NCBI RefSeq assembly: GCF_050920415.1
Contig: NZ_CP169309.1
DNA: 64,000 nucleotides
Strand: one strand, 5' to 3'
DNA from: Escherichia coli
GTDB taxonomy: Bacteria; Pseudomonadota; Gammaproteobacteria; Enterobacterales; Enterobacteriaceae
Made by a program: the position numbers and the translations under genes. Numbering within the stretch: position 1 is the first letter of the stretch; each line of letters begins with the position of its first letter. Positions 59,285 to 62,922 of the stretch are shown here, in pieces. The notes below the pieces were generated by a model. The model worked only from the letters and a program-made list of their open reading frames with translations. It ran no database searches and was not told the DNA's origin.

Positions 59285-59314
59285 AAAACCGCTAATGGTC
59301 AGATTAGCGGTTTT
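59285..59314. terminator. bidirectional hairpin terminator between gpU and the convergent invertase gene
   Basis: Perfect 12-bp inverted repeat AAAACCGCTAAT-GGTCAG-ATTAGCGGTTTT overlapping the invertase stop codon. Confidence 0.55.
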
Positions 59315-59903
59315 CATTTTCCTGAGTCTGCCTGGTTGTTTCTTCAGCCTGTATATCGCCTACAGGGTGATAACGATAAATCGTCGATATGCCGATGTCG
59401 TAAATGATCGCCAGTTGTTTCCTGTCATGACCGTTTTTAATCAGCCTCGCTATTTGCTCGTGTTGTTCTTTTGTCAACTTCGGGCGACGTCCGCCAATGC
59501 GCCCCCGTGCGCGCGCTGCCGCCAGCCCGGCCAGTGTACGCTCTACAATTAATTCACGTTCCATTTCGGCTAAAGCCCCCATGACGTGAAAAAAGAAACG
59601 CCCCATGGGTGTTGATGTGTCAATGCTGTCCGTCAGACTACGGAAATTAACACCTTTTTCCCGCAATTCCTCAATAAGCGTGATCAGGTGTTTCATACTT
59701 CTGCCCAGTCTGTCCAGCTTCCAGACAACCAGCGTATCTCCTTCTGATAGCGTTCTGATCAGTTTTTTCAATCCCGGTCTGGCTGATTTCGTTCCGCTGA
59801 TTTTATCTTCAAAAATCAGTTCACATCCTGCGCACTCCAGCGCGTTACGCTGCAATTCTGTATTCTGGTCATTTGTTGATACGCGGACATAGCCAATAAG
59901 CAT
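59304..59903 (-). CDS. serine site-specific DNA invertase (Gin/Pin/Hin family)
   Basis: 199 aa, MLIGYVRVSTNDQNTELQRNAL... (catalytic Ser region), C-terminal HTH. Confidence 0.9.
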   Translation of the reverse strand: MLIGYVRVSTNDQNTELQRNALECAGCELIFEDKISGTKSARPGLKKLIRTLSEGDTLVVWKLDRLGRSMKHLITLIEELREKGVNFRSLTDSIDTSTPMGRFFFHVMGALAEMERELIVERTLAGLAAARARGRIGGRRPKLTKEQHEQIARLIKNGHDRKQLAIIYDIGISTIYRYHPVGDIQAEETTRQTQENENR

Positions 59904-59960
59904 GATGGATCCCCTGAATAAAAACCGGGGATGATGCCAGTTAGCCGTAATCTCTGCATT

Positions 59961-59986
59961 TTCTTAAACGTTGGTTTGGGAGAAGG
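59961..59986. repeat. invertase crossover site (left), inside the alternative tail-fibre 3' segment; approximate
   Basis: TTCTTAAACGTTGGTTTGGGAGAAGG; a related copy lies in inverted orientation within gene H. Confidence 0.5.
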
Positions 59987-60440
59987 TGCTCCAGCTATTG
60001 GCGTTCCGTTCTTCTGGCCGTCCGCCGCAATGCCAGATACCGTAATCGAAAGCTGGTCCGGCATGGTGTTTTTGAAGTTCAACGGCGCGAAATTCTCTGC
60101 CACTGATTACCCTGTGCTGGCGAAAGTGTTTCCTTCGCTGGTATTACCTGAAGCCCGCGGTGATTTCATTCGTATCTGGGATGATGGCCGTGGTGTTGAT
60201 AGTGGCCGTGCGTTACTTTCCGCGCAATCAGACGATTTCAAAACGCACGAGCATAAAATTTTAGGGCTAAATGGAAGTGGCAGTAATGTAGTGTTTGGCA
60301 CCGTTTCGAATGCTTCTCCATTATATACCAGCGGCGTTAGTCAGCCGGGTGGAAGTGCTTTGCCCGCTTTTCAAAACCCAGGCGGTACTGAAACGCGTCC
60401 CCGTAACATCGCATTCAACTTTTTAGTAAGGGCTAAATAA
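59961..60440 (+). other. alternative tail-fibre C-terminal segment (Hv'), currently not fused to H
   Basis: Part of ORF 59931..60440; no separate start expected; would be joined to the constant part of H after inversion. Confidence 0.55.
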
Positions 60441-61033
60441 TGAAACCTGTTTTTGATGAAAATGGACTGGCTACAGTGCCGGGTGATATGCGTTGTTTTT
60501 ATTATGATGCAGTAACGTATGAATATACGGGCTGGTCTGATGAATATATTAATACTGGTATAAGTATGCCCGCCTGTTCCACTGGTATTGACCCTGGCGA
60601 AAACATTCCGGGAAAAGTGGCTGTATTTACAGGTAAGGGATGGAGCCATGAAGAGGACCATCGCAATGAGACTGTTTACTCAATCGAAAATGGCGCAGCT
60701 GTTACAGTGGATTATATCGGTGCCATCAAAAACGGTTATGTCACGCTTTCACCGTTAACGCCATATGATAAATGGGATGGTGAGAAATGGGTGACAGATA
60801 CTGAGGCACAACACGGTGCCGCAGTAGAAGCGGCAGAAGCACAGCGTCAGCCACTGATTGATGCTGCAATGGCTTCCATCAGTCTGATTCAGCTGAAATT
60901 ACAGGCCGGGCGGAAGCTGACGCAGGCAGAAACCACCCGGCTTAACGCCGTGCTTGATTACATTGACGCGGTGACGGCAACAGATACGAGCACCGCTCCG
61001 GATGTCATCTGGCCTGAACTGCCGGAGGCGTAG
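60440..61033 (+). CDS. tail fibre assembly protein (alternative copy, tfa')
   Basis: 197 aa; C-terminal region ...TTRLNAVLDYIDAVTATDTSTAPDVIWPELP. Confidence 0.75.
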   Translation: MKPVFDENGLATVPGDMRCFYYDAVTYEYTGWSDEYINTGISMPACSTGIDPGENIPGKVAVFTGKGWSHEEDHRNETVYSIENGAAVTVDYIGAIKNGYVTLSPLTPYDKWDGEKWVTDTEAQHGAAVEAAEAQRQPLIDAAMASISLIQLKLQAGRKLTQAETTRLNAVLDYIDAVTATDTSTAPDVIWPELPEA

Positions 61034-61439
61034 GCCATTCAATATCTGGAGCACTGGAGGTATCAACCAGTTCCAGTGCGTCCAGATAATCCAGCCACAA
61101 ATTATATTGCGCCAGTTCCTCACCTTTCAGACGACCAATAGCCGCTTTACCAGGCCATTGCTTGGTATTCATATATTCGTTGGACTGATTAATCAATTGC
61201 TGTTTTTTCAATTCGGCTGCGGCAATCTGTTCCTCATGTGTTGGTGGTGGAATTTCAGACCATGCAGGAAAACCATTTTCCTCAGCGATACGGATTTTTC
61301 CTTTCGGCGGTAATCCGGAAAACTCAATATACACCTGCTCATCAACTTCAACAGCATCATCTGGCCATGAATTTACATTGATGTAGTCATCCTTAAGCGC
61401 AGGATTCACAAAAATATTTAAAGATGGACTAAAAAACAC
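61005..61439 (-). CDS. tail fibre assembly protein (active orientation)
   Basis: 144 aa; C-terminal ...NLWLDYLDALELVDTSSAPDIEWPTPP; convergent with and overlapping tfa'. Confidence 0.75.
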   Translation of the reverse strand: MFFSPSLNIFVNPALKDDYINVNSWPDDAVEVDEQVYIEFSGLPPKGKIRIAEENGFPAWSEIPPPTHEEQIAAAELKKQQLINQSNEYMNTKQWPGKAAIGRLKGEELAQYNLWLDYLDALELVDTSSAPDIEWPTPPAVQAR

Positions 61440-61440
61440 A

Positions 61441-62922
61441 TCACCCTCCTATAGCAACATAACAGCCCGATACAGGATTTGCGGCAGTCGCTACGCTGGA
61501 AAAACCACGAAAGCCGCTTTTTGTGATTGCGGAGGCAGATAGTATTCCGGCACCCGAAGGTGTATGCCCCACGTGGCTGGCAACCATCACGTAGCACGCC
61601 GACGGAAAAGCGAAAGGGAAATTGTTTAAATATCCCGCATCATCCCCCAGACTTCCCCCAAACTGCCCCACTCCCCACTGGATAATAAGTGGTCTCCGAA
61701 CGCCAGAAATAATTAATGGAATTGCTACATACCCATTCACCAACATAGCGCCGGTTGTTGCGCCAGCCAGAGCCAATTCCCCCAAACCAAGGTAATCAAG
61801 AACTCCCTGAGTGCTGGTTTTACCAAGAATGGCACGTCCAACACTTGTCAACGCGGTTAACGCGGCACGATCTGCCCCTGTAAAATATGGGAGTTTATCT
61901 GCTGATGTAGCAAGCTCCGCCAGCGCCGTCAGGGTGGCATCCTTCGGTTGCTTACCCGCAAGCGCGTTAGTCATGGTGGTCGCAAAATTCGGGTCATTGC
62001 CCAGCGCCGCAGCCAGTTCGTTCAGCGTGTTCAGTGCATCAGGTGACGAATCTACAAGTGCGGCAATCGCGGCCATAACGAAAGCCGTGCTTGCGATCTG
62101 GGTACTATTAGTCCCCTGTGGCGCTGTTGGTGTTGTTGGCGTTCCGGTCAGTGCCGGGCTGTTTAATGGTGCTTTCTTGCTCGTTTCATCCATTACCGCC
62201 TTAACAGCTTTTGGTGTCGCTGCCAGCGTTTCAGACGTGCTGTTCGTGGCGCTACTGAGCTGAACAATCCCTTTTTGTGTAGTGGTGGCGTTCTGGGCGG
62301 TATATTTCCCGTTAGCCAGGTCATATGCAGCCTTAACCGCTTTCGGTGTTGCGGCCAGTGTTTCTGATTCACTGTTAATTGCACTGCTTAACTGAGTAAA
62401 ACCTTTTACGGTCAGCGAGGCGTCCGGGTGACGTCGTGACTGTTCGTGCTCTGATATTTTATCATCCACATATTTGCGGGTTGCCAGAACCACAGACGGG
62501 TCGATTTTCAGCGTGATGGCTTCGGTGTTCGTGACAACCAGAATCATGCGGATAGTCTGGGTGCGTCCACTGCCTTCCTGCAACTGCGGTTTGTACGTTT
62601 CCGGGCAGTTTGCCACCGCAATGAGTACACCTTCATCATCATAAAGCCCAATCTCACGGATCCAGAATCCTCCCTCGTTTTCAGGGATGATTTGCTCCGC
62701 AATAATCTGGCTCTGATTGTTAGGGTCAACACTCAGAAGATTCAGCGGTGCAATGCGTTTCTGGTTAATCAGTTTTGTTTGTGCAGGGTCTGGTGTTGGT
62801 AACACACCATTTGCATCACCAACGGCCATTTGCGTCAGATTCAGCTTACTGCCGAGCATCGTCGCGTTAGCCAGTCGTGCCGCGCCCTGATTAGTCAGAA
62901 TGGCGTAGTATTTCACTGTCAT
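61441..62922 (-). CDS. tail fibre protein (gpH-like)
   Basis: 493 aa; repeated ...SETLAATPKAVKA... segments; contains the crossover site near codons for LDYLGLGE. Confidence 0.85.
   Translation of the reverse strand: MTVKYYAILTNQGAARLANATMLGSKLNLTQMAVGDANGVLPTPDPAQTKLINQKRIAPLNLLSVDPNNQSQIIAEQIIPENEGGFWIREIGLYDDEGVLIAVANCPETYKPQLQEGSGRTQTIRMILVVTNTEAITLKIDPSVVLATRKYVDDKISEHEQSRRHPDASLTVKGFTQLSSAINSESETLAATPKAVKAAYDLANGKYTAQNATTTQKGIVQLSSATNSTSETLAATPKAVKAVMDETSKKAPLNSPALTGTPTTPTAPQGTNSTQIASTAFVMAAIAALVDSSPDALNTLNELAAALGNDPNFATTMTNALAGKQPKDATLTALAELATSADKLPYFTGADRAALTALTSVGRAILGKTSTQGVLDYLGLGELALAGATTGAMLVNGYVAIPLIISGVRRPLIIQWGVGQFGGSLGDDAGYLNNFPFAFPSACYVMVASHVGHTPSGAGILSASAITKSGFRGFSSVATAANPVSGCYVAIGG
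61777..61802. repeat. invertase crossover site (right), inside gene H; approximate
   Basis: Minus-strand sequence TTCTTGATTACCTTGGTTTGGGGGAA shares the core TTGGTTTGGG(A/G)GAA with the left site. Confidence 0.5.

Follow-up and report, generated by a model that had tools for sequence, protein, structure and literature searches.

Does the 1.8-kb segment that adjoins a DNA invertase gene and reaches into the tail-fibre gene H of an Escherichia coli prophage act as a switch and, if so, which parts of the fibre does it exchange? The segment lies within a 64,000-nucleotide (nt) stretch of contig NZ_CP169309.1 (RefSeq assembly GCF_050920415.1), and this whole stretch of 64 kb is hereafter called the window. 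A sequence-only reading of this DNA had placed an invertase gene of the Gin/Pin family beside a segment of about 1.8 kb, and this placement stands, as the enzyme is encoded by an open reading frame (ORF) of 199 amino acids (aa) at 59304-59903 on the minus strand and the segment measures 1820 base pairs (bp) when both core dinucleotides are counted. The two alternative fibre C-termini and the two opposed assembly genes described in that reading were also found, arranged tail to tail within the segment. We conclude that in this P2-like E. coli prophage the tail fibre is very probably switched by site-specific inversion of the Din-family type (Pin/Gin/Cin/Hin). The locus displays all the testable defining features of Din-family invertible fibre segments, and not those of multiple-inversion systems.

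The invertase is a serine recombinase of the Pin/Gin/Cin/Hin family, identified as an ORF and by homology, with PinE as its closest relative (81% identity in direct alignment) followed by Cin (74.7%) and Gin (71.5%). It carries a Pfam Resolvase domain at residues 3-135 (E = 1.6e-51) and an HTH_7 domain at residues 138-180 (E = 3.4e-12), and it belongs to PHROG 125, 'DNA invertase' (E = 5e-99). In a sequence search of the PDB, the Gin structures 3UJ3 and 4M6F were matched over residues 1-185 (E about 1e-91), alongside 1HCR, the DNA-binding domain of Hin (E = 1.5e-11). NCBIfam offered no specific model for the invertase, the tail-fibre assembly (Tfa) proteins, U or the sheath, and its matches to the invertase were sub-threshold only and to other serine recombinases; the family was therefore assigned from Pfam, PHROGs, PDB and direct alignment. 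The catalytic Ser9 is kept, and the motifs MLIGYVRVSTNDQ and DRLGRS are unchanged in the alignment with PinE, Cin and Gin. In its domains, its Ser9/DRLGR motif and its identity to the founding members, the enzyme is thus of the Din type. Residues His106 and Met114 are wild type, as in Gin; mutations at these residues yield a Gin that is independent of Fis.

Two crossover sites of 26 bp bound the segment. The left site (59959-59984, minus strand) reads TTCTCCCAAACC AA CGTTTAAGAAAA with its core dinucleotide at 59971-59972, and the right site (61777-61802, plus strand), located within H, reads TTCCCCCAAACC AA GGTAATCAAGAA with its core at 61789-61790. The sequence-only reading had the right site exactly, while its left site, at 59961-59986, was displaced by two bases; its claim that both sites fall in coding sequence reading ...GLGE holds. 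Each site consists of paired imperfect 12-bp half-sites (TTnTCnnAAACC) flanking an identical AA core (TT on the other strand), and the two sites are in inverted orientation, so that size, orientation and shared core are all those of a Din-family site pair. The core TTGGTTTGGG occurs once per strand, at 59971-59980 (plus) and 61790-61781 (minus), and the extended core TTGGTTTGGG(A/G)GAA at 59971-59984 (plus) and 61790-61777 (minus). When the whole 64 kb was scanned with the 17-nt degenerate pattern TTCYCCCAAACCAASGT, allowing at most two mismatches and using 100 shuffles as control, just two places matched against 0.02 expected, and none of the 100 shuffles gave two matches.

Alignment with known crossover sites, which the sequence-only reading had proposed as a check, came out in its favour. 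Reference sites were extracted for pix from the K-12 element e14, gix from Mu and cix from P1. The left site is identical to the e14 pix adjoining pinE at 25 of 26 positions and the right site to the pix in stfP at 21 of 26, and pix, gix, cix and the sites of the window share a common plan of two half-sites and a 2-bp core. Inversion of the e14 P segment has been demonstrated at the repeat TTGGTTTGGGAGAAGG (PMC12529663), and this repeat is present unchanged at 59971-59986. A third crossover site was found neither at up to two mismatches in the 64 kb nor in a looser scan of 59000-63000. We also considered a multiple-inversion system or shufflon, as in Rci, the Min system of p15B or the three-repeat locus of enteropathogenic E. 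coli, and rejected it on account of the presence of two sites only together with a serine recombinase.

To follow the effect of inversion, the sequence was flipped in silico by taking the reverse complement of 59971-61790. H remains in frame and grows from 493 aa as found to 533 aa, with the first 382 residues common to both forms and 111 residues exchanged for 151, in agreement with the predicted swap of about 110 for about 150 residues together with the assembly protein. After the flip, H ends in a tip like that of T4 gp37, and the assembly protein encoded next has 197 aa. The crossover hence lies inside the fibre gene, and either C-terminus continues the constant N-terminus in frame. Fibre gene H as found occupies 61441-62922 (minus strand), of which 61791-62922 encodes the constant N-terminal part, about 378 of the 382 shared residues. 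This part contains the Pfam domain Phage_tail_fib (PF12571, E = 3e-62) and two Phage_fiber_2 repeats, and is 98-99.6% identical to the H of the related loci L001 and L003-L005.

The two tips belong to different fibre-tip families, Gp53-like_C in one case and gp37-tip or collar type in the other, and their domains could be recognised by comparison with known fibres, as had been proposed. Hv1, the C-terminus currently fused to H, comprises 111 variable residues (61441-61788, minus strand) and a Gp53-like_C tip at residues 412-492 of H (PF21882, E = 3.6e-11); a PDB sequence search with Hv1 gave only marginal matches, to pyocin fibres (E = 0.03). It is paired with Tfa1, an assembly protein of 144 aa (61005-61439, minus strand; PHROG 188, E = 1.2e-60), which lies after H in the orientation found. 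Hv2, the alternative C-terminus with 151 variable residues (59973-60440, plus strand), is unfused as found. It matches PHROGs 3100 and 523, 'tail (collar) fiber' (E about 1e-50), and, in the PDB, 2XGF, the tip of T4 gp37 (E = 4.9e-9), and has a weak match to the Pfam Collar domain. Its partner Tfa2, of 197 aa (60440-61033, plus strand; PHROG 105, E = 2.5e-82), starts with a 1-nt overlap with the Hv2 stop, and a PDB sequence search with Tfa2 found nothing. Each variable C-terminus is consequently followed by its own assembly gene, and the two pairs stand tail to tail. Tfa1 and Tfa2 have only their C-terminal approximately 70 residues in common (36% identity over 72 residues) and differ in their N-terminal parts. 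A flip would probably change the bacteria to which the phage attaches, and with them its receptor and host range. The 3' ends of the two assembly genes overlap by 29 nt (61005-61033), and the identical overlap occurs in the annotated relatives L001, L003-L005 and L010-L012.

Both orientations exist in nature, as the sequence-only reading had expected, in a closely related prophage as well as in the window's own cassette pair in other strains. Both the window sequence and its in-silico flipped counterpart served as queries against 5,426 complete E. coli genomes, and O157:H7 strains were returned for both orientations with equal score. Over 7,395 nt, two of these, BB24-1 and FRIK944, differ only in a block of 1,884 nt that is exactly reverse-complemented and ends at homologous repeats; the flanks in both strains show 98-99% identity to the window. 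In the whole set, the O157-type prophage joins the constant part of H to the Gp53-like tip in 9 genomes and to the collar-type tip in 110. Strains FG92-1 and BE2-5 contain the cassette pair of the window itself, one strain in each orientation; FG92-1 is 97.9% identical to the window over 60386-61801 and 99.8-100% over Hv1. In this pair, the inner half-site (TTCCCCC or TTCTCCC) and the outer half-site (GGTTTTCGAGAG or CGTTTATGAAAA) have been recombined across the AA core, and the crossover is therefore within positions 5-14 of the 26-bp site. In both pairs of relatives, BB24-1/FRIK944 and FG92-1/BE2-5, the two orientations are thus on record with the crossover at the core. In P2-like prophages of E. 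coli E2348/69, co-existing orientations have been proven at the read level (PMC4272514), and the segment presumably inverts in the source strain of the window as well. In FG92-1 and BE2-5, the adjoining recombinase gene is a 5' remnant of 123 nt (L011 2956-3078 and L012 5028-5150), which still spans nt 19-90, the stretch homologous to a recombinational enhancer described below. Because the recombinase is a remnant, inversion in these two strains would have been carried out in trans by another Pin-type enzyme or before the truncation.

Invertible segments of this kind leave traces in public annotation. In BB24-1 (L003 4312-5817), RefSeq splits an intact H of 501 aa into two 'incomplete' pieces and a separate gp53-like coding sequence, and the opposite orientation (L004) is annotated as a single gene of 544 aa. 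Unfused cassettes are often flagged as 'missing N-terminus'. Such broken H genes and 'missing N-terminus' labels are annotation artefacts of invertible segments, and inversion explains why pipelines call the unfused cassette, and sometimes the fused gene, a pseudogene. The value of the present locus lies mostly in correct annotation, in which the prophage fibre is marked as bistable, and host-range prediction, prophage typing and assembly comparison should count both orientations as one allele.

For the locus, the mechanism with the best support is the classical one of this enzyme family. Dimers of the invertase would bind the two inverted 26-bp sites, one upstream of the enzyme's own gene and the other within H, and the host protein Fis would bind an enhancer in the 5' portion of that gene. 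The invertase would next cut the DNA at the AA/TT core with a 2-bp stagger, after which subunits would rotate, the strands would be religated and 1.8 kb would be flipped. Late-operon transcription and translation would always enter through the constant 382 residues of H, and for this reason the flip would determine the choice of tip and of downstream assembly protein. Hv1 and Tfa1 would be expressed in the orientation found and Hv2 and Tfa2 after inversion, and a lysogen population would release particles with two receptor specificities.

For the proposed dependence on Fis and on an enhancer, we examined the 5' end of the invertase gene. The stretch 59814-59885 (minus strand; nt 19-90 of the gene) is homologous to the enhancer annotated in the P1 record at cin nt 19-90 and is, by this homology, a probable recombinational enhancer (a Fis-binding 'sis' element). 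It contains 15-mers of the form G-N13-C at nt 22-36 and 71-85, in register with those of pinE and gin and, for the second only, of cin. DNA identity to pinE, gin and cin amounts to 79-85% over nt 19-90 vs 68-73% over nt 91-420, and third-position identity is likewise higher in the enhancer-homologous stretch than over nt 91-420. Among codons with an invariant amino acid, the same codon is used in all four genes in 22-40% of cases within codons 1-60, compared with 0-5% downstream. The raised conservation of 59814-59885 fits an overlapping DNA element, on which inversion would then depend together with Fis.

An alternative, or additional, role for the switch concerns the unfused cassette. Between the invertase start and the left site, outside the segment, lies an in-frame ATG leader (MMPVSRNLCIFLN...; 59931-59970, plus strand), and leader and Hv2 together form a complete ORF (59931-60440, plus strand) that is followed by Tfa2. 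The leader is kept in eight related loci (L001-L005 and L010-L012), in e14 (stfE), where it reads MMPFACYFFIFIN, and in Mu, where it reads MPCVPKSTIIQN; because of this conservation, the cassette beside the invertase is always a complete ORF with a Tfa gene. The arrangement of leader, Hv and Tfa is the one that yields StfE and StfE2 in e14. After inversion driven by PinQ, StfE2 of e14 is reported to block receptors against other phages (PMC12529663). By analogy, a lysogen carrying the present element may produce the invertase-proximal cassette as a free receptor-binding tip with its chaperone, masking receptors against other phages, and inversion would toggle the tip displayed, either in addition to setting phage host range or in place of it. 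We consider such a host-serving function unlikely. It would account for the conserved ATG leader, which completes the unfused ORF in every relative examined as well as in e14 and Mu, and for the 1-nt overlap between the Tfa start and the cassette stop, and both the near identity of the e14 sites and the published StfE2 result speak for it. However, a scan for expression signals gave 7 promoter-like sites vs 5.3 in shuffled sequence and 5 terminator-like sites vs 4.2, that is, no excess, and no promoter-like site for the ORF upstream of 59931. The conservation of the leader could instead reflect the 5' untranslated region and promoter region of the invertase gene on the opposite strand, and with a late operon that is apparently intact and P2-like, host-range switching is the simple reading. 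If the free-standing cassette is in fact expressed, as reported for e14, switches in intact prophages could also defend against phages.

Several observations weigh against a working fibre switch, and some of them favour a second alternative, according to which the anatomy has been kept but inversion no longer takes place in this strain, leaving the fibre fixed in its 493-aa Gp53-like form, for example through lack of invertase expression, too great a degeneration of the right site or a defect in the prophage. The outer half of the right site is imperfect and departs from the half-site consensus (TTCTTGATTACC where ...AAACC is usual), and a single position distinguishes its inner half from that of the left site. 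A degenerate Fis-consensus scan gave no high score at nt 22-36 of the invertase gene and did not single out the expected sites, and the function of the putative enhancer is deduced from homology. The window stops at gene J and so contains the prophage only in part, with the remainder lying outside, and the related O157-type assemblies are strongly biased towards one junction (110 vs 9 genomes). Nevertheless, the ORFs of the invertase, of both fibre forms and of both Tfa genes are all intact, and the invertase retains its full set of catalytic and regulatory residues. The same variants of the outer and inner half-sites, moreover, occur in elements known in both orientations, and such sites can also be used in trans by other Pin-type enzymes, for example those of e14 by PinQ (PMC12529663). 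A frozen fibre is thus very unlikely. The remaining possibility, that the two 14-nt cores form a chance inverted repeat reflecting merely the GLGE peptide motif of paralogous fibre genes, has in its favour that both copies encode the same peptide and that a generic repeat search yields only 29 nt at 76%, but it is effectively refuted by the two matches against 0.02 expected and by natural inversions that end exactly at homologous repeats; the left site, which adjoins the invertase gene, equals a proven pix at 25 of 26 positions and lies partly outside any fibre-homologous coding sequence, also speaks against it.

As a Din-family fibre switch, the locus can be set beside several known systems. 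The closest is the P segment of e14 with PinE, which has the same layout of a constant fibre part, Hv and Tfa, inverted Tfa' and Hv', and then the invertase. The e14 segment measures 1,797 bp vs 1,820 bp in the window, the AA core is found in both, the near identity of sites (25 of 26 positions at the invertase-proximal site, 21 of 26 at the other) has been described above, and e14 also has the conserved MMP... leader. It differs in being a defective element with a Mu-type baseplate and a truncated fibre gene, whereas the window has the H of a P2-like late operon, different tips and an invertase with a C-terminal tail 15 residues longer than that of PinE. The Mu G segment with Gin and the P1 C segment with Cin share with the window the enzyme family (72% and 75% identity, respectively), the 26-bp site plan, the position of the crossover in the fibre gene (S) and an assembly gene (U/U') after each variable part, and in P1 the enhancer is annotated at the start of cin, which matches the position proposed here. 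However, their segments are bigger (about 3 kb in Mu and 4.2 kb in P1) and their variable parts far longer, the core of gix is TC rather than AA, and the tips and backbones are also different.

Further likenesses come from systems with a P2-type tail. Carotovoricin Er reportedly has a P2-type contractile tail in which a Din-family invertase switches the fibre C-terminus and alters the target range; it is a Pectobacterium tailocin and not an E. coli prophage. The phages P88 and 500465-2 (Gemsvirus), Xuanwuvirus P884B11, pro483 and the Citrobacter phage phiSM have the same backbone order as the window, namely tape measure, U, an invertase gene on the opposite strand and a fibre module converging on the invertase. 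They are 88-91% identical to the window across the end of the tape measure, U and the invertase, and 500465-2 has homologous cassettes in the opposite orientation. These are isolated phages rather than a prophage copy, and they differ in their variable tips and in a constant fibre part that is only partly similar. In the P2-like prophages of E. coli O127:H6 E2348/69, an invertase and inverted repeats have been found to give alternative fibre C-termini (Goldberg et al. 2014, PMC4272514). Going by the published description, these prophages carry an element of this type, likewise in E. coli, although one of their loci has three repeats and four variants, compared with only two sites in the window. 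The literature already contains cases of such segments inverting in P2-like E. coli prophages, and the present locus is real but ordinary.

In the 5,426 genomes, no copy of the whole locus was found, the best match covering 86% of it. The combination of Hv1 and Hv2 on this backbone is a mosaic, with each cassette common elsewhere. The cassette of Hv1 with Tfa1 recurs at 99.8-100% identity on other prophage backbones in 62 E. coli genomes, including a prophage with the classical P2 order (in the avian pathogenic E. coli IMT5155) and e14- or Qin-like remnants, and 14 E. coli genomes carry Hv2 at 98.2% identity. Homology to other Hv1 carriers ends at 61794 and 61801, i.e. at the crossover. Comparison of the right site (61777-61802) with L010 4948-4973 and L011 4948-4973 further revealed a hybrid, with the inner half TTCCCCCAAACC going with the Hv1 cassette and the outer half GGTAATCAAGAA with the constant part of H. 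These patterns suggest that cassettes may be exchanged with their inner half-sites between unrelated prophages at the recombination site, mediated by an invertase acting in trans. The middle of Hv2 (60209-60398) is unrelated at the DNA level to the otherwise similar Hv2 of L001, L002, L005 and L010, yet matches the 14 other E. coli genomes at 98.2%, and there is therefore a second level of mosaicism within the tip.

The surrounding DNA identifies the carrier as a P2-like prophage with the gene order of P88/Gemsvirus. To its left, the host chromosome is that of E. coli (fliC, uvrC and pgsA; 98% identity), and the prophage end is located 3' of a tRNA cluster, Gly(GCC)-Cys(GCA)-Leu(TAA), at 50484-50785, the prophage being integrated after the tRNA-Leu. 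The prophage arm of P2-like type extends from 52430 to the end of the window. It includes gene D (52430-53671, minus strand) and, on the plus strand, sheath (53697-54881), tube (54881-55393), gene E (55450-55824), tape measure (55939-58776) and gene U (58783-59277); on the far side of H, gene I (62919-63560) and gene J (from 63520) are on the minus strand. P2-type tail and baseplate genes, as in Peduoviridae, are thus present as D, FI, FII, E, T, U, J, I and H. Tail protein I (TIGR01634) and the tail tube (TIGR01611) exceed the curated NCBIfam cut-offs, and the nearest phage records are Peduoviridae, with gene order as in Gemsvirus and Xuanwuvirus. We considered whether the tape measure-U block, which faces the fibre module, might be a large invertase-mediated rearrangement, and rejected this explanation as the layout is the normal one in P88, Gemsvirus and Xuanwuvirus.

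Between the tRNA cluster and gene D lie a 131-aa ORF with no assigned function (51212-51607), a hok/gef-like ORF (51797-51937) and, last before D, an ogr/delta zinc-finger gene (52127-52387). Within 49000-64000, no Sok or Hok RNA matched Rfam at the gathering threshold, and only the three tRNAs were detected. Finally, a consensus scan identified a terminator-like hairpin with a perfect 12-bp stem (AAAACCGCTAATGGTCAGATTAGCGGTTTT) at 59285-59314, between the U stop and the invertase stop. The hairpin has an A run on its 5' side and a T run on its 3' side, the units of U and of the invertase converge on it, and it looks like a bidirectional terminator for two convergent transcription units.

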